Shown one piece after another: positions 2,685-54,009 of a stretch of DNA of 64,000 nucleotides (within the stretch, counting starts at the first letter, position 1; each line of letters begins with the position of its first letter). Under the pieces are notes generated by a model, which had not been told where the DNA came from, did not search any database, and saw nothing but the letters and a program-made list of their open reading frames with translations. The position numbers and the translations under genes were made by a program. The stretch spans positions 180,472 to 244,471 of the forward strand of contig JACRJU010000013.1 of the NCBI GenBank assembly GCA_016219925.1, written 5' to 3'. Origin of the DNA: Candidatus Uhrbacteria bacterium. Lineage in GTDB: Bacteria; Patescibacteriota; Patescibacteriia; UBA9934; GWF2-40-263.

Positions 2685-2749
2685 GGTTTATGCCATGTCT
2701 TTGGGCCAGCGGACTCCTCGCCGCTGTTCCCTCCGACATGGCATAAACC
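2685..2749 (+). repeat. Structured hairpin repeat, family 2, copy A
   Basis: A 17-bp stem (GGTTTATGCCATGTC / GACATGGCATAAACC) closes the conserved loop TTTGGGCCAGCGGACTCCTCGCCGCTGTTCCCTCC. Confidence 0.8.
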
Positions 2750-2798
2750 GCAAAAAGACGTCTGTACGCTAAAGAGAAAGGATTATTTTGCGAACTCT

Positions 2799-2830
2799 TC
2801 GCCGCTGTTCCCTCCGACAGGGCATCAACC
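2799..2830 (+). repeat. Partial (3' half) copy of the family-2 hairpin repeat
   Basis: cgccgctgttccctccgacagggcatcaacc matches the 3' loop/stem half of copy A. Confidence 0.6.
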
Positions 2831-2850
2831 GAAAAAGATTGACAGCATAT

Positions 2851-3750
2851 ATGCTCATCGATACACATTGCCACGTGCATTTTAACGCTTACAAAGACGA
2901 CATGGACGCGGTGATCCGCCGAACCCTTGACAAAGGGGTTTTTATGATCACGGTCGGCACACAAAGAGATACGAGCGCAAACGGATTGAAAGTTGCCGAA
3001 CTCTACGATGGATTGTGGGCAAGCGTTGGCCTGCATCCAAACCATCTCACCCGACAAGAGTTTTGGGATGATGATGAACTTCCGCCGCAGGCGCAAGCAA
3101 CGCCGCTTATCAAAACACGAGCCGAAGTGTTTGATCCCGCCTATTATCTCAAGCTGGCGCAACATCCGAAGTGTGTGGCTATCGGCGAATGCGGCCTGGA
3201 TTATTATCGGATCCCCGAAGGGGTTGATAGAGAAGACGTAAAGCGCGTGCAAGAAGCGGCTGTGCGCGGACAGTTCGATGTGGCCACGCAAGCGAATCTT
3301 CCCGTGATTGTGCATTGCCGCGATGCACACGCGACGCAGGCCGACCTTATTGAAGAGTTTGTGAAAGAGGGAAAACTGGCGCGGCGGGGTGTGGTGCATT
3401 GTTTTACGGGAACGATTGAGGAAGCACAGCGATATTTGAATTTAGGATTTTATATTTCGTTTACGGGAATCATCACCTTTCCTGCGCGAAAAGGAGAAGC
3501 AGATGGTGACGGGTTGAGCGCGCTTCATCGAGTGGTGCGCGAGATGCCGCTTGAGCGTATGCTTATTGAAACGGACGCGCCGTATCTGACGCCAATCCCG
3601 CATCGTGGCGAACGTAACGAACCGTGGTATGTGGAGTTTGTGGCACAGAAGGTTGCGGAGCTCAAAGGGATTTCGTTCGATAAGGTCGCTGAGCAGACAA
3701 CAGAGAATGCGAGGAAATTATTTGGGATAATTGAATCTTTCTTGCAATGA
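2851..3750 (+). CDS. tatD: TatD-family metal-dependent deoxyribonuclease
   Basis: Contains MLIDTHCHVHF, GECGLDYYR, VIVHCRDAH and LIETDAPYLTP signatures. Start taken at the ATG at 2851 rather than the repeat-derived ORF extension. Confidence 0.9.
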   Translation: MLIDTHCHVHFNAYKDDMDAVIRRTLDKGVFMITVGTQRDTSANGLKVAELYDGLWASVGLHPNHLTRQEFWDDDELPPQAQATPLIKTRAEVFDPAYYLKLAQHPKCVAIGECGLDYYRIPEGVDREDVKRVQEAAVRGQFDVATQANLPVIVHCRDAHATQADLIEEFVKEGKLARRGVVHCFTGTIEEAQRYLNLGFYISFTGIITFPARKGEADGDGLSALHRVVREMPLERMLIETDAPYLTPIPHRGERNEPWYVEFVAQKVAELKGISFDKVAEQTTENARKLFGIIESFLQ

Positions 3751-3756
3751 TAGCAA

Positions 3757-3795
3757 AAGAAAAACGCCTGCGAGAGTTTCGCACGGCGTTGGTTG
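3757..3795 (-). terminator. Putative intrinsic terminator for the minus-strand island gene
   Basis: On the minus strand an imperfect GC hairpin (aacgccgtgcgaaactctcgcaggcgtt) is followed by TTTTTCTTTT. Confidence 0.45.
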
Positions 3796-3804
3796 AGGTA
3801 GGGG

Positions 3805-4677
3805 CTACCAGTAGCGCCGACGGAACTCCGTCGCGTCATGGTGGTTCAGGCCCGTGTTGAGGTCGGCGATGAGCAGGCCCATCAGCTGACCGAACAGGAC
3901 CATCTGCGGTCCGTTCTGTCCGCTCTTGAAAGCTTTGACCAGATCGATCGCCCGCGCGAGCTTGACGCGCGCGGCTTCCTTGGCGACGACATCGCCGTTG
4001 CGGAATGCGCGGTGTGCCTCGATGATCGCGTCGCGGTTCGACGGCCAGTTCGAGTCATGGTTCACGATCTCGCGCAGGCCGATCGTGATGGGATCCGACG
4101 CCCGAGCAGGGGGGGTCAGTGGCGGTTCGCGTCGATCCTCATCTCGAGGCTTTCCGTCGCGTCGGTCGTCCCGACGCGGTTGCTCGCTCGTGGGCTGGCG
4201 CTGTCCTGATGGAGCCGTTGCTCCTGGCGCGGTGCGCGGAGCTTGTACCACAGGAGCGCGCGGCGCGCTCTGCGAAGGGGGAAGCAGCACGGTACGCGCC
4301 CCGCCTCCGCTTGGAGCCGCAACTGCCGCCGCAACGAGATCGTCGAAGTTCGTCACACTCGCTGCGGGTTCTTCGACCGCTTCGACCGGGAGAGCTTCTA
4401 CGATCACCGGCTTGGCGACGTCGACGGTGACCTTGGCCTCCAGCTTGGCCGCGTAGGCCGCCAAGAGGACTTTGGCTGAACCGTCCGTCAGGCCTTCAGC
4501 GTAGAAGGTGGGCCTGCGAGTGAACTCGCCGACGTTGTCGATGGTGTTAGGGTTCAGACCCCCAGCCTCGTCGTTGGTGGGCTCGGGGCTGTCCCCGAGG
4601 GCTTCGACAGCCTCCTGCGAGGCCGTCGCGTCAGGGTTGGGCCCGAAGAGGGCCTCAAAGGCTTCGTTTCTGGTCAA
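3805..4677 (-). CDS. Hypothetical protein with a low-complexity Ala/Pro/Glu-rich middle and a conserved C-terminal domain (high-GC island 1)
   Basis: GC3-rich coding frame with a diverse amino-acid composition, while the opposite-strand ORFs are Arg/Ser/Ala junk. The likely start is the TTG at 4677, 6 nt after AGGAGG; the ORF tool's longer start at 4728 lies inside the -10 box. Confidence 0.55.
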   Translation of the reverse strand: MTRNEAFEALFGPNPDATASQEAVEALGDSPEPTNDEAGGLNPNTIDNVGEFTRRPTFYAEGLTDGSAKVLLAAYAAKLEAKVTVDVAKPVIVEALPVEAVEEPAASVTNFDDLVAAAVAAPSGGGARTVLLPPSQSAPRAPVVQAPRTAPGATAPSGQRQPTSEQPRRDDRRDGKPRDEDRREPPLTPPARASDPITIGLREIVNHDSNWPSNRDAIIEAHRAFRNGDVVAKEAARVKLARAIDLVKAFKSGQNGPQMVLFGQLMGLLIADLNTGLNHHDATEFRRRYW

Positions 4678-4718
4678 GGGCCACCTCCTGATTAAGGGTT
4701 GTCCAGTCGAAGGAAGCG

Positions 4719-4797
4719 AATTTATCACAAAAACTCTTATTTGTCAATAAAAAATGACAAGCGAAAGCTTGACATTTTTAGGGAAATCAGCTAATAT
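4719..4797. promoter_or_regulatory. Back-to-back divergent sigma70-like promoters of island 1
   Basis: Plus strand: TTGACA (4769-4774), 17 nt, TAATAT (4792-4797). Minus strand: TTGACA (revcomp of 4742-4747), 17 nt, TAAATT (revcomp of 4719-4724). Confidence 0.55.
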
Positions 4798-4905
4798 CGT
4801 CCCTCACGTTCGTGTCGTTTTCAACGATTCGAACATGGGGAAAGTTTCTCAACCCGCCGCTAAGCGCGGCCAAAACGCCGCGTGAGCGGCAAGGAAGGAG
4901 GCCAG

Positions 4906-6537
4906 ATGGCCACGCAGCAGTCCCAGTCCGATACCGGTGCCTTCGGCACCGACGACGTCATCGAGCGCCTGGGCGTTCGCGTGCTCGAAGAGGGCGAGAG
5001 CCCTGCCTCCGGCACGACCGCCTTGGTGCAGTTCCGGGCCGCCCCGACCCTCAAGGCGATCGGGCGCGACCTCGCCCGCGTCGCGGCCACGACCTCCATG
5101 GGCAACCGGGAGGGCGCCCGCCGCCGGTGGCTGGACCGCATGGTCATGGTCTCCGGCCCGGATGGCAAGCCCTCGGACGTCCCGCTCTTTGTGAGCGTGA
5201 CCTTCACGGGCAAGCTCGTGACGGTCAAGGGCGTTCAGGACGTGGGGGTGAGCGCGGAGATGGAGCTCCCCGGCCTCGGCCGCGTGGAGATCCAGCCGCT
5301 CTTCACCGTCGGGATCGAGTACGTCGCCGTCAAGGAAGGCGTGCTCGTGCCCACGCGCTCCTTCACCGGCGCCCTGTTCGCCCCGAAGAGTGGCAAGGGT
5401 CCCGGCAAGTTCGTGCCCATCGACTTGGCCGACCCCCAGCTCATCGCGCGCTGGAACGGCATCGTCGAGCAGGGCAAGGCGCTCAACACCGACCACGGCA
5501 AGTGGCCGACGATCCCGGTCCTCGAGACCAAGATCGGCCGGCCCGGGCAGATGATCATCCCCTTCGCGCCCCGCTACCAGGTCAAGGAGACCTTCAACGA
5601 GCGCGGGCGTGACGGCAAGGAGCGCCAGAAGTCGATCTGGGTCATCGGGACCCGGTTCGGCAAGAAAGTGATCCTGGAAAGCCGGTCGCAGGCCCCGGCG
5701 GTCATCGACGCCAGCTCGGCAAAGCCGTTCGGCGATCTCGAGTTCGTCGTCCGTGAGGGCGAGAACTCCCTGATCGTCGTCCTGCGCGGCCGGCCCGGGC
5801 AGACGCCCCTGCCGGAGTCCATGGCGACCATCGAGCAGGCGAGCGACGGGGTGGACCCGTTCGCCGTCCTCAATCTGGACGTCATGCGCTACGAGCCCGG
5901 CCGGGCGCACACCTTCGTGGAGCGGTGCATGCAGCTTCCGCTCAACTCCGCCAATCCGCTCTACAAGAGCGCGATCAACCTCGGGCTCATCGTCGCGGGC
6001 CAGTCCACGGCGGTCGTGAGCAACCAGCTCCAGGCGCTGGCTGACGAGGCCCAGCGCAAGGCCAGGGAGTTCTGGGACGCAGCCATGAAGGCGACGTGGG
6101 AGGCCTTCAGGGTCTACACGTTGCCGGAGATCGGCGACTGCCTGCAGGGCAAGCCCCTGGGGCAGGTCATCGACCGGCTCAACCCTGAGGACGCGGCCGC
6201 GGCGTGGATCACCAGCCACGTCGAGGGCGAGTACTCGCACACGAGCCCGTTTCACCGGGTCCTGCGCGAGCGCGTCCTGCGTGCCGTCGCCCGCAAGGCC
6301 GGCTACCGCGACCCGGCCCCCGAAGGCCCCGCGGCCGACGAGCAGGCCAAGCCCGCCAAGTCCGAGGCCCCGCAGAACAGCGGGACCAACGGCGCGACCA
6401 GCCCCGTCGCCGCGGACACCGCCGAGGCCCCCAAGCCGAAGCGGACCCCGCGCAAGCCGACCAAGGGCGCCAAGCCCAAGGCCGCCGCGCGCAAGACCGC
6501 CAAGCCCAAGGGCTCCCAGCCCGCACTGCGGCAGTGA
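4906..6537 (+). CDS. Hypothetical 543-aa protein with a Lys/Pro/Ala-rich basic C-terminal tail (high-GC island 1)
   Basis: AAGGAGG at 4893-4900 precedes the ATG at 4906 by 5 nt, and the frame is very GC3-rich. The tail (PKPKRTPRKPTKGAKPKAAARKTAKPKG) resembles histone H1 / HU-tail repeats. No family was recognised for the body. Confidence 0.6.
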   Translation: MATQQSQSDTGAFGTDDVIERLGVRVLEEGESPASGTTALVQFRAAPTLKAIGRDLARVAATTSMGNREGARRRWLDRMVMVSGPDGKPSDVPLFVSVTFTGKLVTVKGVQDVGVSAEMELPGLGRVEIQPLFTVGIEYVAVKEGVLVPTRSFTGALFAPKSGKGPGKFVPIDLADPQLIARWNGIVEQGKALNTDHGKWPTIPVLETKIGRPGQMIIPFAPRYQVKETFNERGRDGKERQKSIWVIGTRFGKKVILESRSQAPAVIDASSAKPFGDLEFVVREGENSLIVVLRGRPGQTPLPESMATIEQASDGVDPFAVLNLDVMRYEPGRAHTFVERCMQLPLNSANPLYKSAINLGLIVAGQSTAVVSNQLQALADEAQRKAREFWDAAMKATWEAFRVYTLPEIGDCLQGKPLGQVIDRLNPEDAAAAWITSHVEGEYSHTSPFHRVLRERVLRAVARKAGYRDPAPEGPAADEQAKPAKSEAPQNSGTNGATSPVAADTAEAPKPKRTPRKPTKGAKPKAAARKTAKPKGSQPALRQ

Positions 6538-6600
6538 TTCCCTCCGGATCCTGCCGCTCTTTTTTTATTGTAGCGTGATAGATACAGATGACAGATCAGT

Positions 6601-6738
6601 CAGTGGGGGCCCGGCTGGCCATTTCCCCATCCGTGCTCGCAAGCTGCGCGCGGATGGGGACCCCATGGCCGCCTCCCCACTGGCCGTGACAGCTTATCCA
6701 TTCGCAAAGCGACTCTATTGCCCGAGCTTGTCGAGGGC
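6601..6738 (+). repeat. GC-rich extended-hairpin repeat, family 1, copy 1
   Basis: About 90% identical to 13221-13358. It forms nested stems: CCAGTGGGG/CCCCACTGG, GCTGGCCAT/ATGGCCGCC and CCCCATCCG/CGGATGGGG. Confidence 0.8.
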
Positions 6739-6844
6739 TGCTCTTGCAATGCGGCGTAGTCCATGCCTCCTCGACAAAATCAATCATTCATCACCGAACG
6801 AGATGGACAACGTGAAGATGAAAGGAGGAGGAACTATCCGTTGG

Positions 6845-6914
6845 TGCGATAATATGAACACAAGGGAATCCATAGGGTTCCTCCCGTGATTCCCCTGTAT
6901 TCATATCATCGCAC
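6845..6914. other. Nested inverted-repeat element upstream of the atp promoter
   Basis: The outer stem GTGCGATAATATGAA/TTCATATCATCGCAC encloses the inner stem GGGAATC/GATTCCC. Confidence 0.4.
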
Positions 6915-6952
6915 CCCAAGGGGAAGCTGTTCCTTGATATTTTTTATCCGCA

Positions 6953-6981
6953 TTGACCTTTTTCTCTGTGCCGCGTATACT
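6953..6981 (+). promoter_or_regulatory. Putative promoter of the ATP synthase operon
   Basis: TTGACC (6953-6958), 17 nt, TATACT (6976-6981). Confidence 0.5.
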
Positions 6982-7016
6982 TTCCGCGCTTGTTGACCGT
7001 TGCGCACAAGACGCTT

Positions 7017-7262
7017 ATGAGCACCGATGCCCCTTATTACCGACTTGCGATGAAGATTTTCGTAGACTTTACCGGAACCATCGCGATCCCGGTGGTTGTC
7101 GCAGCGCTTGCAGGCAAATGGCTTGATGAGCGTTATGGCACATCGCCGTGGTCTCTCATCGGCTTGTTCGCTCTTGCGCTGATTTTTACGGGCATGACGG
7201 TCGTCAAAAAAGCGTATCGGTATCGGAAAGAATTTGAATCCATTTCACACAACGCTAAGTGA
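7017..7262 (+). CDS. Small two-helix membrane protein, possibly an AtpZ/AtpI-like ATP synthase accessory protein
   Basis: An 81-aa hydrophobic protein immediately upstream of atpB, in the usual AtpI/AtpZ position. Confidence 0.4.
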   Translation: MSTDAPYYRLAMKIFVDFTGTIAIPVVVAALAGKWLDERYGTSPWSLIGLFALALIFTGMTVVKKAYRYRKEFESISHNAK

Positions 7263-13220: not shown

Positions 13221-13358
13221 CAGTGGGGGCCCGGCTGGCCATTTTCCCATCCGTGCTCGCAAGCTGCGCGCGGATGGGTGCCCCATGGCCGCCTCCCCAC
13301 TGGCCGTGACGGCTTATTCATTCGCAATGCGACTTTATTGCCTGAGCCTGTCGAAGGC
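13221..13358 (+). repeat. GC-rich extended-hairpin repeat, family 1, copy 2
   Basis: About 90% identical to 6601-6738, with the same orientation and nested stems. Confidence 0.8.
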
Positions 13359-13470
13359 AATGACGATCCCTCCGACACGGTTTTTGTCAGAACCACTGGT
13401 CTCGCAGTTTCTCCTTTCGTTTCTCTTTATCCCCCGAGCTTGTCGAGGGGGGTGCACGTAGCATCTGAAA

Positions 13471-13541
13471 GCGATTTGTAACCATGTCGGAGGGAACGAC
13501 GGCGATGAGTCCGTCGGCCCGGAGACATGGTTACAAATCGC
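13471..13541 (-). repeat. Structured hairpin repeat, family 2, copy C (inverted orientation)
   Basis: An 18-bp stem (GCGATTTGTAACCATGTC / GACATGGTTACAAATCGC) closes a loop that is the reverse complement of the conserved loop. Confidence 0.8.
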
Positions 13542-14875: not shown

Positions 14876-15490
14876 ATGGGACGATTGTCCACGTTTGACA
14901 GGGAAGTGATTGGCATCCTTCGAGAGGAGAACGTCCTGCAAGACGGCGAAGCGCACCTGCTTGAGTCGCCCACGGGTGTGATCGTGGTGGCCTGTTCGGA
15001 CGGCGACCAGATGCCGGACATCTTCGACCACTATCGGGACCTCGCGCGGGCGGGGGAATGGCCCGTGCGCCCGCACATGCTCTGCCTGCACGGTGGAGCC
15101 ATGCTGATCGCGCCCGACTGCCCGCTCTACCGCGCGTTCCACGTGGACGAACTGCTCCTTCAGCACATCCGCGAGGCCGAGGGACTCGACCTCAAGGGGA
15201 TCGGCACGGTCGTGCTCTACGTGCATGCCCCCTGTGGCGCGGCCGGCTTGGCGAACCTGACGGTCGTCAACCAGCTCGACATGCTCATGCGCGCCAAGGC
15301 TCGCGTCAAGGCGATCGATATGACCAATAGGGTCATCTGTTTCGTCCACGTCGACTACGGCAACGAGGGCAACGGAAGCCATAGACGTCGCACGTACTTC
15401 ATGTCCGCGGCGGGCTGGGCCGAGTTCTGGAACCGTCAGGGCCACGAGTTGTGGGGGCGCTTACTAGGTTTTCCTGTGTCGGCGAGTTGA
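14876..15490 (+). CDS. Hypothetical protein, paralog family member C (high-GC island 2)
   Basis: Motifs VVACSDGD, HGGAMLIAPD and HAPCGAAGL. GC3-rich frame. Confidence 0.6.
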   Translation: MGRLSTFDREVIGILREENVLQDGEAHLLESPTGVIVVACSDGDQMPDIFDHYRDLARAGEWPVRPHMLCLHGGAMLIAPDCPLYRAFHVDELLLQHIREAEGLDLKGIGTVVLYVHAPCGAAGLANLTVVNQLDMLMRAKARVKAIDMTNRVICFVHVDYGNEGNGSHRRRTYFMSAAGWAEFWNRQGHELWGRLLGFPVSAS

Positions 15491-15693: not shown

Positions 15694-16230
15694 ATGACCT
15701 TGCAAGATCTCGTGTCTCGTGGTGTGCTCGTGCCTCGGACGGTGCGCGAGAAGAACACCAAGCCGGTCGTCGTCGTCTGCGACAGCGAGACGGTCATCGA
15801 GGGGCTGTGCGACAAGCGCGTTTCTCGGCGCGTGATCGCGAACGTCGCCGGGGTGCTCGTCGGCACCCCCGAGAGCGATCTCCAGTCCGAGATCGGCGTC
15901 GATCCGGACAAGGTTCTGTACGAACCTCTCCAGATTGCCTTCTCCAACGGGCACCGGTACATCCTGCTGGTCGTAAACCCGGACGCGGTCTGGGGGATCA
16001 TGAGTGAGATGACCAACGTCGAGCTCATTGACCACATGATGCAGGTCGCTCGCGAGATCCGGGAGCGGATGCCCCACTTCGAACTCGACTGCGTCGTCGT
16101 CAAGGGAACGAACTACGGGGAGGTCTACACGGTCAACCCCGAGGCTTGGACGCGGTTCTACGCGACGTACGAGACGCGCGTGCTCGGTCGCCAGGATGAC
16201 GGGCTGGAGCTCGTCCCCGCCACCGTCTGA
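15694..16230 (+). CDS. Hypothetical protein, paralog family member D with degenerate His/Cys motif (high-GC island 2)
   Basis: Aligns with gene C (VVVVCDSE, VAGVLVGTPE, YILLVVNPDAVWG, CVVVKGTNYGE) but lacks the HxxC pair. Confidence 0.6.
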   Translation: MTLQDLVSRGVLVPRTVREKNTKPVVVVCDSETVIEGLCDKRVSRRVIANVAGVLVGTPESDLQSEIGVDPDKVLYEPLQIAFSNGHRYILLVVNPDAVWGIMSEMTNVELIDHMMQVAREIRERMPHFELDCVVVKGTNYGEVYTVNPEAWTRFYATYETRVLGRQDDGLELVPATV

Positions 16231-16344
16231 CGCCTCGCGTCTTCACTCATGGCACCTTCGCGACTTCTTCTACTGCACCCGTCGTCCTCCGGGTGCCTTT
16301 TTTATATTTTTTTTAATAGTCTCGCCAGCTAATCATTCATGAAA

Positions 16345-16415
16345 CAGATTTGTAACCATGTCTCTGGGCCAACGGACTCATCGCCGTTGTTCCCTCCGAC
16401 ATGGTTACAAATCTG
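16345..16415 (+). repeat. Structured hairpin repeat, family 2, copy D
   Basis: An 18-bp stem (CAGATTTGTAACCATGTC / GACATGGTTACAAATCTG) closes the conserved loop. It sits between convergent genes. Confidence 0.8.
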
Positions 16416-16437
16416 TTTTATAAAAAAACATCCATTC

Positions 16438-16980
16438 TCACGGATGCAGAATGCGGATGCGCAGACGGATGTGACTGCGCTTGGGGTTGCCGATGTAGAT
16501 CGAGTCGTAGTCCTGGAGCTCGACGTACACGTCACGCATCAGCGGCCGGGCCTTGGGTGCGCCGGTGCGCCGATGATACGTCGTGTGGCGGTCGGACATC
16601 GTACGCAGGCAAGGTTTGTCGTCCCGGCGTTCGATCACGGCCTGGATGCGCGAGAGCGTACGCTCTGCGTTCAGGCCAACCAGGAGCGGGAGCAGATCGA
16701 CTTCTGGCACGATGGGAGGAACGGTGGTGTCGTCCTTGCGACCGATGCGAAGAGGCGGGTCTCCCGCCGATTCCAGATCGAAGGTAAACGAGATCGGCAC
16801 ATCGCCTGCAACCAGCTCTCGATCACCCACCTGTTCAACGATGATCTCCATGGTGGCAACGGGCTGTTGCACAGCGACGATCGCCTTTGGTTGCGACGGG
16901 GGGGACAGGGGACTCCCATCCTGATCGCACACGAGCGTGCCGTTCTTGAAGTGCTTGCCGCATGAGGGGCAGGTGATCAT
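16438..16980 (-). CDS. Zinc-ribbon plus FHA-domain protein (high-GC island 3)
   Basis: N-terminal CPSCGKHF...C ribbon. FHA signatures: IGRKDD, LSRIQAVIERR, the HTTYHRRTG beta-turn and L.DYDSIYIGN. The ATG overlaps the vWA stop (ATGA). Confidence 0.6.
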   Translation of the reverse strand: MITCPSCGKHFKNGTLVCDQDGSPLSPPSQPKAIVAVQQPVATMEIIVEQVGDRELVAGDVPISFTFDLESAGDPPLRIGRKDDTTVPPIVPEVDLLPLLVGLNAERTLSRIQAVIERRDDKPCLRTMSDRHTTYHRRTGAPKARPLMRDVYVELQDYDSIYIGNPKRSHIRLRIRILHP

Positions 16981-18254
16981 GGCTTCTCCTCATCCGTTCC
17001 ACTGTGTTGCGGAAAGTGCATGGTGTGAACCACGCTGACCGAACCGCCCGTGAGCGTTTCGCTTCCGCGATCGACTGCGGCGCGGCTGTGCGTTCCACGC
17101 GCGAGGTGATCGACCATGGTGCGCAAGGCAGTGGCTGTGGCATGGTCGCCGGCACGTTCGTAGACGACCGAGGCGCCATTGAGGTCGCCGCGATCAGCCA
17201 TCTCCGCCCCGGCCATGTGTTGGGCGACCCTGATCACTTCTGGGTCGGGTTCGGTCTGTGCGGCCTCGTCCCACGTGAACGTTGCGTCGACAGAGAGGTC
17301 GCAGGTGAACGAATTGCCGCTCGAACCGGCTTCCGTGCCGGCAAGCGACAGCTTCAGGATTGGGTGAGTTCCGGGTTCCGGTGTCCCGACCTCGATCTCG
17401 AAGTAGTACTGCTGACCCCGCGCGCGATCGAGCGCGCCCGACGCATCGGTAAACGCGCCGTCTTGGCCGACGTTGAGCGGGCGCTGCTGGGGCATGAAGC
17501 GGGCCGCACGGATGAGGCTCGTCCCTTGCGAGATCTGTCCGGAGACGACCAGTCCTCGGACTCCGACCCCGCGCAGGAAGCCGACCTCGGAGCGGAGGTG
17601 ATCGAGCAGTTCGTCTGCTTGCATCACATGCTTGAGGAACGACCCGTTGCCGGCGCGAACCGCGAGTTGCTGCAGCAGGGCGAAGTTGTAGTCACCGCCG
17701 GTGCCGTAGACGAGCATCGGCAAGCCGTAGTCGCGCGCCCGATCGGCGCTCTTGACCAGTTGCTGGTGGTCTTGGTGGACGTTCACCGTGCTCTCGCCGT
17801 CGGTGAACAGGACGAGCCGCGTCTCGAAGCGGATATCGGGGCGTGTGATGGCTTCCTCGACGCCGCCGGAGATGAACGTGTCGCCTTCCGCCTTGATGGC
17901 CGCGATGAGAGCGCGCGCGTGACTGTGAACCTTATAGTCCATGTTCGTGCTGGGCAGATCAAGATCGTGGAAGTCGGCGAACGTGATGAGCGCGAGCCGA
18001 TCCTTCGGACCAAGATCGCCGATCAGCTCACGCAGGGCAAGCCGCACGGCCTCGATCTTTCTGCCCTCCATTGAGCCGGAACGGTCGATGACCAGGCGCA
18101 GGTCGATCGGCGGAGCGTTGGGGTTGGTGGTCGCGGGACGAATGTCCACGAACACCGGCACGACAACAGGACCCCCGTCGATGTGTGTGACTTCACGACC
18201 CAGATGCACGGTTACATGCACGTGAGTCAACTTGTGAACGAGCTGGGTACCCAT
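16977..18254 (-). CDS. von Willebrand factor A (vWA) domain protein with MIDAS motif (high-GC island 3)
   Basis: LVIDRSGSMEG (DxSxS), LITFADF and LFTDGES. GGAGG lies 5 nt before the ATG. The minus-strand promoter is TTGACA, 17 nt, TAACGT. Confidence 0.7.
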   Translation of the reverse strand: MGTQLVHKLTHVHVTVHLGREVTHIDGGPVVVPVFVDIRPATTNPNAPPIDLRLVIDRSGSMEGRKIEAVRLALRELIGDLGPKDRLALITFADFHDLDLPSTNMDYKVHSHARALIAAIKAEGDTFISGGVEEAITRPDIRFETRLVLFTDGESTVNVHQDHQQLVKSADRARDYGLPMLVYGTGGDYNFALLQQLAVRAGNGSFLKHVMQADELLDHLRSEVGFLRGVGVRGLVVSGQISQGTSLIRAARFMPQQRPLNVGQDGAFTDASGALDRARGQQYYFEIEVGTPEPGTHPILKLSLAGTEAGSSGNSFTCDLSVDATFTWDEAAQTEPDPEVIRVAQHMAGAEMADRGDLNGASVVYERAGDHATATALRTMVDHLARGTHSRAAVDRGSETLTGGSVSVVHTMHFPQHSGTDEEKP

Positions 18255-29246: not shown

Positions 29247-29358
29247 CGATTTGTGCCATGTCTCTGGGCCAGCGCCTGCCCGCCATCCGGCCTGAGCCGT
29301 CAGGCGATGGCAGGCGGGGACTCCTCGCCGCTGTTCCCTCCGACATGGCACAAATCGC
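29247..29358 (+). repeat. Structured hairpin repeat, family 2, copy E (expanded loop)
   Basis: A 17-bp stem (GCGATTTGTGCCATGTC / GACATGGCACAAATCGC). The conserved loop carries an insert of about 40 nt. Confidence 0.75.
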
Positions 29359-29416
29359 AACAGGTTCCTTCGCTTCTATTGGTCGCTCATGATGGCGAAG
29401 CAAGTATCAGATATGT

Positions 29417-35283: not shown

Positions 35284-35362
35284 GTTTTGCGGTTTGTGCT
35301 ATGTCTCCGGGCCAGCGGACTCCTCGCGGCTGTTCCCTCCGACATAGCACAAACCGCAAAAC
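35284..35362 (+). repeat. Structured hairpin repeat, family 2, copy F
   Basis: A 22-bp stem (GTTTTGCGGTTTGTGCTATGTC / GACATAGCACAAACCGCAAAAC) closes the conserved loop. Confidence 0.8.
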
Positions 35363-35605
35363 GATCGACAGCAAGCACACATCTGCGTCTCTGGGTCGTC
35401 CACCCTAGCTTGTGTCTTAAAATGAAATATCGCAAAAAGAATATTCAGAAGAGTGAGCGAGACAGAAATGTCTTTCTTTTTATCTCTTCTCTCCATGGGG
35501 TGGGTGATCCCGAACACAAACCGGACCAGTCATGAAGACCAGTCCGGAATATACTGAATAACCGAGATCTATCCTAGCGTCGTATAAGGTTTATTGTACG
35601 ACACA

Positions 35606-53115: not shown

Positions 53116-53964
53116 TTAGCCCAGGAAGGTGATGCTTGTGAGCGATCCGCGTCGCCCCCGGACGGTCTGGCCGAGCGGATCCAGTCCGATTTGCGTGCGT
53201 CCGATCGTCTCGAGCTCGTAGCCCTCGATTTTCAGATTGATGGCGGCCTGACCTTCGCAGAATGTGGCGCGCCACAGCGATTGCAGAACCCGTAGGAAGT
53301 GCCCTTCGAGCAGGACCCCGACCTCGCGCTGGTTCTCCTGAGCCCAGGTGTCGCGACCGGGAACCACCACCGGCTTGTGAGTGGTCTTGTGGTAGCCAGG
53401 CGGCCACAAAGAGACCTTGCCGACGCGGAGCGGCGACTTGAGCGGCCAGCATTCGGCCGCCACCATCTGGTTGTGGTGGATCGCCGCGTCGCGAGCCCTG
53501 GCGATATGCTCGATCGAGGAGGCATACCACTCGAACCGCTGTTGACCGCGACGGTCGAAAGCGAAACACCCCTGGATGATCGTGCCCGTTGGAGGCTGAA
53601 GCGCGCTGAGGTGGCGATGCCCTTCGCGAAGGGTCGAGACTGCATCGTAGCTTACACCAACGTTCCCGGTGTCGTCGATCGAGCCGCGCGTGCGTCCGAG
53701 CAAACGTTGCAGGAGACTCGGTTCGTACGGGCTGACCGACAGCGCCCAAAAGTAGTGGGTCGCCGTCGGATCTTGACGCACGTCCGTGACTTCGCTTCGG
53801 AATCCGACGACTGCCGGAACCCGGTGGCCGACACCCGGAAGGTTGATCACAGCCACATCGGTCGGGACGTCTTCGAGACGGTATTTGAGCTCTTTGGCGG
53901 CCATGGCGCCGCGCAAAGCGTCAGAGAGCGACACGTGCGAAATGGGGATCATCATTGTAGACAC
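53116..53964 (-). CDS. Hypothetical protein (high-GC island 4)
   Basis: GC3-rich frame with balanced composition. AGGAGGAGG lies 6 nt before the GTG at 53964. The ATG at 53997 is an alternative start but would sit inside the predicted promoter. Confidence 0.5.
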   Translation of the reverse strand: MSTMMIPISHVSLSDALRGAMAAKELKYRLEDVPTDVAVINLPGVGHRVPAVVGFRSEVTDVRQDPTATHYFWALSVSPYEPSLLQRLLGRTRGSIDDTGNVGVSYDAVSTLREGHRHLSALQPPTGTIIQGCFAFDRRGQQRFEWYASSIEHIARARDAAIHHNQMVAAECWPLKSPLRVGKVSLWPPGYHKTTHKPVVVPGRDTWAQENQREVGVLLEGHFLRVLQSLWRATFCEGQAAINLKIEGYELETIGRTQIGLDPLGQTVRGRRGSLTSITFLG

Positions 53965-54009
53965 AGCGTACCTCCTCCTGTTGTTGGGCGTTGGCATTTA
54001 AACATAGAA

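Follow-up and report, generated by a model that had tools for sequence, protein, structure and literature searches.

A divergent GC-rich orphan gene pair beside tatD is a resident locus of Candidatus Uhrbacteria with a codon bias maintained in separate lineages

Organization and base composition of the locus

The window analyzed here is a stretch of 64,000 nucleotides from Candidatus Uhrbacteria (assembly GCA_016219925.1, contig JACRJU010000013.1, positions 180,472 to 244,471 of the forward strand). Between tatD and the atp operon it contains two divergently transcribed genes, referred to below as the minus gene and the plus gene according to their strands. Both proteins have been deposited as hypothetical proteins (HZA85_03360 and HZA85_03365) on a 281,942-bp contig of a Candidatus Uhrbacteria metagenome-assembled genome. 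We show below that the pair is a vertically inherited, resident Uhrbacteria locus and not an acquired island. The following features were assigned at the locus:

3759-3783, minus strand: likely terminator of the minus gene, with a hairpin stem at 3783-3769 and the T-run tail GGCGTTTTTC, 22 nt past the minus stop codon
3805-4677, minus strand: minus gene, 290 aa, TTG start
4684-4689, minus strand: Shine-Dalgarno sequence AGGAGG of the minus gene (CCTCCT on the plus strand), 6 nt ahead of the TTG
4719-4747, minus strand: promoter-like site of the minus gene, TTGACA-17-TAAATT with a TG extension
4769-4797, plus strand: promoter-like site of the plus gene, TTGACA-17-TAATAT
4803-4839, plus strand: conserved leader stem-loop of the plus mRNA, at its predicted 5' end, 14 pairs by RNAalifold
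4877-4890, plus strand: short GC hairpin GCCGC-GTGA-GCGGC just upstream of the plus Shine-Dalgarno sequence, read from aligned leaders
4896-4901, plus strand: Shine-Dalgarno sequence AGGAGG of the plus gene, 4 nt ahead of the ATG
4906-6537, plus strand: plus gene, 543 aa, ATG start
4906-6315, plus strand: conserved core of the plus gene (residues 1-470), with N-terminal helices, beta-rich domains at residues 81-171 and 217-295, and a helical C-terminal domain at residues 309-464
6316-6537, plus strand: basic tail (residues 471-543) and stop codon of the plus gene; the tail is Lys/Pro/Ala-rich and predicted to be disordered, with an isoelectric point (pI) of 10.4
6528-6569, plus strand: intrinsic terminator of the plus gene, a stem-loop at 6528-6557 over the stop codon followed by UCUUUUUUUAUU

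The original prediction, which had been made from the sequence without database searches, described head-to-head consensus promoters and AGGAGG ribosome-binding sites for both genes, and both are present (promoter-like sites: plus strand 4769-4797, minus strand 4747-4719). The TTG start of the minus gene is supported by its orthologues, which begin with MTR, MNR, or MDR at the matching position. The likely terminator of the minus gene sits between this gene and the convergent tatD.

In 300-nt windows, the GC content was 0.50-0.53 at 3451-3900, 0.62-0.75 over 3751-6600, and about 0.49 past 6750, with a dip to 0.51-0.54 at 4501-4950 inside the high-GC block. The rise from about 50% to about 67% up to position 6580, which had been noted before, is real, and its step falls on the two divergent open reading frames (ORFs). 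High GC is confined to the coding sequences (CDS), and an AT-rich spacer splits the two ORFs:

Minus CDS: GC 0.66
Promoter spacer 4678-4802 (125 bp): GC 0.39
Plus 5' untranslated region (5'UTR): GC 0.58
Plus CDS: GC 0.70
Terminator region 6538-6600: GC 0.44

In comparison to the host, with a GC content of about 0.50, the composition of the pair (0.66-0.70) is atypical, and the plus gene, with its GC jump of 20 points, has a Streptomyces-like codon usage. The GC content at third codon positions (GC3) is 0.95 in the plus gene and 0.75 in the minus gene, as compared to 0.39-0.61 in about 45 other ORFs of the window, a gap far above chance scatter. Seven genes carry high GC in the lineage of the window, namely the pair and five other lineage-specific genes.

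The pair adjoins tatD in all lineages recovered

A word-indexed search of 5.8 billion clusters returned four homologues of the plus protein (43-51% identity), and a profile search of 1.84 billion representatives of about 15 billion proteins returned 59 homologues of 297-638 aa, 24 of them below 1e-30. These 59, which are clusters at 50% identity, constitute the plus family. The two family representatives with a source name are both hypothetical proteins of Candidatus Uhrbacteria. All genomic contexts described here were obtained by exact-protein look-ups; a locus search with a five-sequence alignment gave no confirmed match in GTDB representative genomes, IMG/VR, or JGI metagenome contigs.

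The nine other contexts inspected were all of Uhrbacteria type. A gene of about 240-350 aa lies divergently upstream of the plus homologue in all nine of these lineages, and tatD adjoins the pair in each of the nine other lineages recovered, with protein identities as low as about 30%. In six of them, the pair is bordered by tatD or the contig end on one side and by the atp operon on the other. The same divergent layout was found in L003/L004, L005, L006, L007, L008, L011, L012, L013/L014, L015, and the 151-kb contig of P0021. A search for co-occurrence of the two genes in other genomes, which had been suggested along with the original prediction, was thus positive in nine other lineages. The gene order of the window is MetRS-CvpA-TatD-minus-plus-atpZ-B-E-F-H-A-G-D-C, and this order recurs in L003/L004 and L005 (partial contigs), in L015, in the P0021 contig, and in L013/L014. 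The latter, which are Uhrbacteria from Rifle groundwater, keep the order with a plus protein about 28-30% identical to that of the window, and they have an additional plus paralogue between the plus gene and atpZ. In L011, tatD is followed by the pair, and in L008, tatD is located upstream of the pair.

The identity of housekeeping proteins between genomes was 68-90% overall (AtpA 88%, AtpB 74-78%, TatD 73%, helicase 68-69%). The plus proteins (37-54%), the minus proteins (30-41%, encoded divergently from every plus homologue examined), and two further proteins that are described below, a VWA protein (42-45%) and an FHA-like protein (35-38%), all diverge much faster. The locus is native, old, positionally fixed, and, as far as sampled, Uhrbacteria-specific.

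One pair of contigs differed at the partner gene. L004 (1-1501) and L003 (158-1048) encode an identical plus protein, and the sequence upstream is different: in L004 the partner gene is cut to 212 aa, and a 228-aa GC-rich ORF (GC 0.70) is found on the opposite strand. A frameshift or an assembly variant is the probable explanation.

The codon bias of the plus gene is held separately in each lineage

The GC3 of the plus gene was compared with that of its neighbors in ten lineages:

Window: plus GC3 0.95; neighbors 0.39-0.61
L003: plus GC3 0.90; neighbors 0.47-0.48
L005: plus GC3 0.73; neighbors 0.46
L006: plus GC3 0.88; no neighbor gene, flank GC 0.50
L007: plus GC3 0.84; neighbors 0.43-0.57
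L008: plus GC3 0.63; neighbors 0.32-0.39
L011: plus GC3 0.92; neighbors 0.49
L012: plus GC3 0.69; neighbors 0.49-0.51
L013: plus GC3 0.70; neighbors 0.37-0.55
L015: plus GC3 0.87; neighbors 0.61-0.75

In these ten lineages, the plus gene exceeds its neighbors by about 0.15-0.45, with the exception of one small L015 gene that equals it. A codon-usage comparison with the host, also among the checks suggested earlier, thus confirmed the deviation and revealed that it recurs in ten lineages.

Whether the bias reflects shared ancestry was analyzed at residues with four-fold codon boxes that are conserved between orthologues, where the identity of the third base can be compared with the expectation from independent draws. 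In eleven pairs, the observed identity equaled the independent expectation (z from -2.1 to +2.2), and synonymous sites were likewise saturated in atpA when the window was compared with L003. As synonymous sites are saturated and GC3 is nonetheless 0.84-0.95 in several lineages, the bias must be an equilibrium held in each lineage and not an unameliorated inheritance.

The preferred codons are similar throughout. In strongly biased lineages, ATC accounts for 80-100% and TTC for 89-100% of the respective codons, and GGC, GTC, CTC, ACC, and GCC are mostly the commonest in their own four-fold boxes. In all lineages tabulated, AAG and CAG reach 85-100% and 86-100%, and A-ending codons only 1-11% (frequency of A at third positions 0.01-0.11), as compared to about 20% in the host. 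L008 uses AAG and CAG to 100% and shows a weaker preference in the pyrimidine-ending pairs (ATC 62%, TTC 53%).

The bias is restricted to individual genes. In L013, the GC3 of the plus gene is 0.70, that of the partner gene 0.49, and that of the 601-aa plus paralogue (orf601) 0.45, and the partner gene is host-like in L012 as well as L013, from which it follows that the bias is gene-specific and not regional. The paralogue, which has about 600 aa in some Uhrbacteria, is convergent to the plus gene (L013 11718-13523 and L012 3095-3736, both on the minus strand) and carries an acidic C-terminal extension; with its host-like GC3, it serves as an internal control for gene-specificity. Across lineages, the GC content of the plus 5'UTR is 0.05-0.18 below that of the ORF, and the spacer between the two GC-rich genes remains AT-rich also where its positions are not conserved. 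The shift in distant lineages is confined almost wholly to third positions. We conclude that the composition is upheld by a force acting on individual coding sequences. A literature search on GC or codon heterogeneity in Uhrbacteria or Patescibacteria found nothing relevant.

Origin of the pair

The original prediction had framed the region as a compositional island, i.e., inserted or possibly chimeric DNA. A recent horizontal acquisition from a high-GC donor would be in line with a GC content and codon usage resembling those of an organism with about 70% GC, with the hypothetical nature of the genes, and with a repeat just downstream, and the pair shares these aspects with genomic islands and prophage remnants, which also show sharp GC and codon deviations, hypothetical genes with their own promoters, and nearby repeats. 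It is nevertheless very improbable, as the pair is found at the same site beside tatD in ten lineages, with identities down to about 30%, and as its synonymous sites are saturated with the bias retained. No integrase or transposase gene, no tRNA gene in the window that could have been a target, and no direct repeats flanking the island were detected; the repeat families that were found do not bracket 3757-6580, and the promoter spacer is host-like. There was also no homologue outside Uhrbacteria-type contexts among the 1.84 billion representatives, and the word-indexed search had only its four hits. The earlier view that the absence of integrase, transposase, capsid, and terminase genes makes this not an obvious prophage was confirmed: no phage or mobile-element hallmark was found, PHROGs gave no match for the window proteins or the 59 family members, tblastn found none in INPHARED (50,697 phage records) or in 72,556 plasmids, an IMG/VR scan gave no confirmed match, and the best Foldseek hit of the plus model in the BFVD had an E value of 0.025 and a TM-score of 0.13. 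The PADLOC defence models recognized 0 families for both proteins.

A chimeric assembly, or a fragment of a high-GC contaminant joined to a contig of 50% GC, is still less credible. The abrupt GC steps near 3750 and 6580 and the repeats at 2678-2836 and 6601-6738, which could cause mis-joining, might point to it, but a Logan contig of run SRR12113407 (3,899 nt), which comes from a different assembly pipeline, spans tatD and both genes and is identical base for base to window positions 2732-6630. This contig starts in a palindromic repeat upstream of tatD and ends in the 6601-6738 repeat, which is the usual behavior of graph assemblers at repeats. It is an independent assembly and not necessarily an independent sample, and the right-hand junction rests on synteny: the junction of the plus gene with atpZ recurs in L003, L005, L013, L015, and the contig of P0021. 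In addition, the GC steps match the CDS ends and not the repeat edges, and no homology to a protein of a high-GC contaminant was found among the representatives searched. Recent transfer and chimerism are effectively excluded. An ancient transfer from a high-GC donor into an Uhrbacteria ancestor, followed by incomplete amelioration, has a somewhat better standing but is unlikely as well. It would fit the observation that every GC-rich gene in the window is either a lineage-specific orphan or evolves fast, and also the variation of the enrichment between lineages, with VWA and FHA-like genes that are GC-rich in the window and host-like in L007. However, with synonymous saturation even in atpA, a neutral GC3 of 0.84-0.95 could not have lasted in at least five separate lineages, the L013 paralogue differs from the main copy (0.45 vs 0.70), and no donor family was found.

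Expression signals of the plus gene

The transcription start of the plus gene is a prediction, and the elements around it are well conserved. The sequence TTGACATTTTT precedes the plus gene in each of the seven lineages checked. In a six-sequence alignment, the full 12-mer CTTGACATTTTT shows no variation, and a 17-nt spacer and a -10-like hexamer come next in every case. The TTGACAAT box of the minus promoter is kept in the window, L003/L004, L006, and L007. A promoter scan detected four promoter-like sites in 3.5 kb, with 0.5 expected. The 12-mer CTTGACATTTTT was also considered as a shared regulon motif and rejected, as it occurs only at this locus and as a one-mismatch copy near the atp promoter, which is not above chance. 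In L005 (about 1000-1280; columns 24-300 of alignment A4), the promoter spacer carries an insertion of about 280 nt that contains inverted repeats, and the flanking core promoters are retained.

The stem-loop at 4803-4839 shows compensatory changes in 6 of its 14 pairs across seven lineages. Overall, 88.8% of the alignment cells were paired, as compared to 31-53% when the partners were slid, and the covariation score was 0.54 vs 0.05-0.21, with none of 500 shuffles reaching the observed value. In bacterial mRNA decay, a 5'-terminal hairpin shields transcripts from 5'-end-dependent RNases, and the position of the stem-loop suggests that it may be such an mRNA-stabilizing 5' hairpin. Short hairpins analogous to that at 4877-4890, with GNRA-like or short loops, precede the Shine-Dalgarno sequence in L003, L005, L007, L008, and L011. 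The terminator of the plus gene folds with a minimum free energy (MFE) of -20 kcal/mol (centroid hairpin -19.1, z -2.5). No Rfam family reached its gathering score anywhere in the window, and matches in 3700-7100 were only at chance level. By sequence-level prediction, the plus gene combines a strong promoter, a ribosome-binding site, a stabilizing leader, and a terminator, as is typical of a highly expressed gene. Its coding mRNA has a mean folding energy of -51 kcal/mol per 120 nt, as compared to -34 in atpA, and is more structured than synonymous shuffles in the four lineages analyzed (z -3.2, -5.3, -5.1, and -1.9).

A 468-aa antisense ORF (4849-6255, minus strand) lies over the plus gene. 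An overlapping antisense gene was rejected: the codon-aligned antisense frame runs without a stop through all 544 codons, yet synonymous shuffles are equally open, and for L008 and L013 the frame is even shorter than in the shuffles. The frame is open because the codons TTA, CTA, and TCA are avoided, i.e., it is a composition artefact.

The plus and minus proteins

Neither protein belongs to a known family, as had been suspected. Pfam, PHROGs, PADLOC, and NCBIfam gave no match for the plus and minus proteins, and Pfam, NCBIfam, and PHROGs gave none for any of the 59 plus-family members. Against PDB sequences, the best match of the plus-family profile was an unrelated protein at E 0.24, and the minus-family profile had no match below E 0.24.

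AlphaFold modeled the plus protein well when the 59-member alignment was used (mean predicted local distance difference test score, pLDDT, 86.7; predicted template modeling score 0.79; 394 residues with a pLDDT of at least 90), whereas a five-sequence alignment gave a poor model (pLDDT 62). In the tail, the block-mean pLDDT is 75 at residues 471-480 and then 39-58. The sequence contains no signal peptide and no hydrophobic segment, and the overall pI is 9.5. In 13 aligned members, 24 positions are invariant, without a catalysis-like cluster of invariant His, Cys, or Asp residues. The plus product is thus a soluble multi-domain protein of about 470 residues without recognizable relatives. The 543-aa length and the KP/AKP-rich basic tail had been correctly predicted; the histone-H1-like character of this tail is however no family feature, as the tail is variable in length and, although many members have it, 5 of the 13 lack it or have a non-basic one. 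In structure comparisons with two independent models, more than ten different proteins with an oligonucleotide/oligosaccharide-binding (OB) fold were among the weak matches, and the beta-barrel domain of the plus model overlays many OB folds at about 3-4 Å over about 65-75 residues. The OB-like barrel of the model, together with the basic charge, suggests that the plus protein may bind nucleic acids.

With a pI of 5.3, the minus protein is mildly acidic. Its N-terminal part of about 75 aa is conserved and acidic and is followed by an Ala/Pro/Val-rich low-complexity middle part with a few conserved short motifs and by a conserved, helical-looking, basic C-terminal part of about 90 aa that ends with EFRRRYW, so that the translation agrees with the acidic protein, the Ala/Pro/Val linker, and the motifs described before. 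Alignments with orthologues cover the N-terminal 75 and the C-terminal 90 residues.

Linked FHA-like and VWA genes and other GC-rich genes

A second high-GC stretch of the window contains two genes that are linked to the pair in some relatives:

16438-16980, minus strand: FHA-like gene, 180 aa, zinc-ribbon and FHA-like
16977-18254, minus strand: VWA gene, 425 aa, cytoplasmic, DRSGS at residues 57-61

The VWA gene overlaps the FHA-like gene by 4 nt and is divergent from a UvrD/PD-(D/E)XK helicase gene (18340). Its product matches Pfam PF00092 (E 7e-15, 56.1 bits with a cut-off of 23.8) with the DxSxS motif present. The FHA-like protein has Cys motifs of zinc-ribbon type in its first 20 residues, and its FHA assignment is sub-threshold: Pfam FHA matched two of three orthologues (best E 1.7e-4) and not the window protein, a GR...SRIxA signature is conserved, and a PDB profile match to the APLF FHA domain was obtained at E 0.57. 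In L007 and L008, orthologues of the FHA-like gene (BLASTP 33% to L007) directly follow the plus gene, and the VWA orthologues (BLASTP 43% to L007) adjoin the pair, in the order tatD-minus-plus-FHA-like-VWA-helicase without an atp operon between. As the window genes are orthologous to these neighbors of the pair, the GC-rich "islands" of the window are pieces of one conserved, lineage-specific gene set. In most lineages, the atp operon separates the pair from the other lineage-specific genes; either it was moved or lost in L007 and L008, or it was inserted between the gene groups elsewhere.

Three further high-GC orphan genes without family match are located at 14876-15490, 15694-16230, and 53116-53997 (GC3 0.82, 0.87, and 0.76). 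The genes at 14876 and 15694 have homologues in L015, orf196 and orf185, which lie downstream of atpC (GC3 of orf185 0.88 vs 0.61-0.75 in the host), and a homologue of the 14876 gene (orf211) is found at this place in L013. These genes are likewise syntenic residents and no insertions. The 14876 gene has its own TTGACG-17-TAATAT promoter-like site. A paralogy among the small genes of this second stretch and the preceding 263-aa gene was considered, but the comparison gave only a weak HxxCGAA motif match (E 0.026). PADLOC recognized 0 families for the other high-GC genes of the window that were tested.

Repeats

The GC-rich repeat that had been predicted immediately downstream of the pair was found at 6601-6738, between the plus gene and atpZ. 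It has 138 nt, and a second copy on the same strand (13221-13358, 93% identical) lies between atpD and atpC. The repeat folds as one long hairpin (MFE -74 kcal/mol, z -4.1) without an Rfam family. The spacer between the plus gene and atpZ in L003 has about 115 nt and is too short for it. A family of palindromic intergenic repeats of about 80 nt, resembling repetitive extragenic palindromes or miniature inverted-repeat transposable elements, occurs at 2678-2758, 2790-2836, 13468-13539, 16341-16421, 29285-29365, and 35284-35364, and these repeats yield spurious ORFs with the peptide ...SSPLFPPTW.... The start of the long atpC ORF (13484) is inside one of these copies and the Pfam match begins at residue 27; the true atpC start is probably further downstream. 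Between cvpA and tatD, there is a 97-nt direct duplication (2451-2547 and 2580-2676, 98% identical).

Discussion

With moderate confidence, we favor the view that this is a native, fast-evolving orphan pair whose plus gene is highly expressed, has a codon bias maintained by selection, and possibly encodes a nucleic-acid-binding protein. The plus gene appears to be built for very strong and stable expression, with its conserved -35 box, covarying leader, AGGAGG sequence, and strong terminator. Its extreme GC content would be mostly synonymous, with NNC and NNG codons preferred and A-ending codons almost abolished, and in each lineage independently, selection for efficient decoding and/or a long-lived mRNA would keep this bias on the plus gene. 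In the lineage of the window, the same pressure may extend to the partner gene and the five other lineage-specific genes. The plus protein could then be abundant, with a structural or nucleic-acid-binding role in which it acts together with the low-complexity acidic partner, and the pair may be linked more loosely to the FHA-like and VWA genes. Our data show the residency, conservation, and synteny of the pair, its maintained bias, the conservation of promoter and leader, and the lack of known relatives, whereas high expression, selection as the cause of the bias, nucleic-acid binding, the physical partnership, and the FHA/VWA link are inferred.

Several observations weigh against this view. 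Classical translational selection should also reach the ribosomal-protein genes, but the S9, L13, L17, S4, S11, S13, and RpoA genes of the same window (Pfam-verified) have a GC3 of 0.45-0.56 and a C/(C+T) of 0.26-0.50, with no move to C- or G-ending codons. In the window, GC at the first and second codon positions (GC1 and GC2) is raised too (0.67/0.49 vs about 0.59/0.40), for which codon selection alone is insufficient. The atpA control also exceeds its shuffles (z -2.6), which means that the folding test does not discriminate. The likeness to OB folds does not reach the usual significance level, the basic tail is no conserved trait of the family, and the FHA/VWA link is an adjacency in two related lineages only.

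An alternative is a selection on nucleic-acid composition itself and not on decoding, in which a GC-rich, structured mRNA resists A/U-preferring RNases of the housekeeping or toxin/defence type, or gene bodies evade an AT-preferring DNA-binder, perhaps the plus protein. The raised GC1 and GC2, the lack of bias in ribosomal-protein genes, the mRNA folding energies (-51 vs -34 kcal/mol; in three of the four lineages, z between -3.2 and -5.3), and the hairpins that bracket the plus mRNA at the 5' end and the terminator all agree with it. We regard this as possible but rather unlikely, as the atpA control lies beyond its shuffles as well, the 5'UTR is less GC-rich than the ORF in most lineages, and no RNase, toxin, or silencer is tied to the locus, with PADLOC being empty; the idea is wholly inferential. 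Somewhat less probable still is a non-selective, gene-local GC-biased process, such as gene conversion at a hotspot or transcription-linked repair or mutation, that also speeds protein evolution. Hotspots of biased conversion in other organisms show comparable shifts at all codon positions, and such a process would agree with the fast evolution of the genes, the shift of all three positions in the window, and the move of amino-acid usage there to Ala, Gly, Pro, Arg, and Val. However, the enrichment ends within tens of bases of the CDS ends, with a GC of 0.39 in the 125-bp spacer, the two genes that flank the plus gene in L013 are unaffected, and distant lineages are shifted almost purely at third positions. 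Moreover, the trait that varies least across lineages is that A-ending codons are nearly absent and AAG and CAG reach 85-100%, which is codon-specific and not a uniform GC shift. A more far-reaching idea, which we consider speculative, is that there is a "privileged" class of Uhrbacteria genes with an extreme coding GC caused by nucleic-acid selection and not by ordinary translational selection, perhaps to withstand an A/U-specific RNase regime or to evade an AT-preferring chromatin protein. In the lineage of the window, it would take in the plus and minus genes, the FHA-like and VWA genes, and the three further orphans, and the plus protein would be a new-fold, abundant nucleoid- or RNA-binding protein of bacteria from the candidate phyla radiation (CPR).

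The preferred reading, a selected codon bias in a highly expressed native gene, can be compared with known systems. Codon-biased, highly expressed genes with 5' stem-loop leaders are known from ompA-type leaders and from S-layer and elongation-factor genes. The plus gene resembles them in its near-consensus promoter, its long structured leader with a 5'-proximal hairpin, its strong Shine-Dalgarno sequence and terminator, and its preference for C-ending codons in two-fold pyrimidine boxes. It differs in that the ribosomal-protein genes are unbiased, in the GC3 of 0.95 with the additional shift of GC1 and GC2, and in that the expression of the plus gene is predicted. Genomic islands and prophage remnants, in contrast to the pair, have mobility genes, tRNA targets, and donor or phage homologues, and the pair occupies an orthologous site in all relatives sampled. 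With OB-fold binders such as SSB, PriB, RPA, Stn1/CTC1, and baculovirus LEF-3, the plus protein shares the barrel overlay, its basic character, and in many members a basic disordered tail, but there is no sequence similarity, and its multi-domain core of about 470 residues resembles none of them. Histone-H1-like, Lys/Pro/Ala-rich bacterial tails occur in mycobacterial HupB, chlamydial Hc1, and Pseudomonas AlgP. The composition of plus residues of about 505-540 (KPKRTPRKPTKGAKPKAAARKTAKPKG) is alike, but the large core to which the tail is attached is unrelated, and the 5 of 13 members mentioned lack the tail or have a non-basic one. Cytoplasmic signaling modules with vWA and FHA domains include TerY-type vWA proteins with a kinase or phosphatase and FHA-PP2C-kinase operons. 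The cytoplasmic DxSxS VWA protein, translationally coupled to the zinc-ribbon/FHA-like protein and encoded beside the pair in two lineages, is similar to these, but none of the neighborhoods showed a kinase, phosphatase, or MoxR ATPase, and the FHA assignment is sub-threshold. Single genes with a strong codon bias and a presumably high expression are thus a known kind of phenomenon, which is encountered here in an unusual and extreme form. What is unusual is a GC3 of 0.95 in a genome of 50% GC that is kept past saturation, is not shared with ribosomal-protein genes, and reaches GC1 and GC2.

For the detection of genomic islands, our findings are a caution. A GC jump of 20 points is in this case a stable property of a native gene, and compositional outliers in CPR genomes can therefore not be read as transfer or mis-assembly without a synteny check. 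The contrast between unbiased ribosomal-protein genes and an orphan with a GC3 of 0.95 also offers a manageable system in which decoding selection in bacteria could be told apart from mRNA-stability selection and from biased conversion. The plus family is uncharacterized, with a confidently predicted structure that has no structural neighbor, and the design of the plus gene suggests that its product may be a candidate for one of the most abundant proteins of the uncultivated Uhrbacteria, which makes it a target for metaproteomics and biochemistry.

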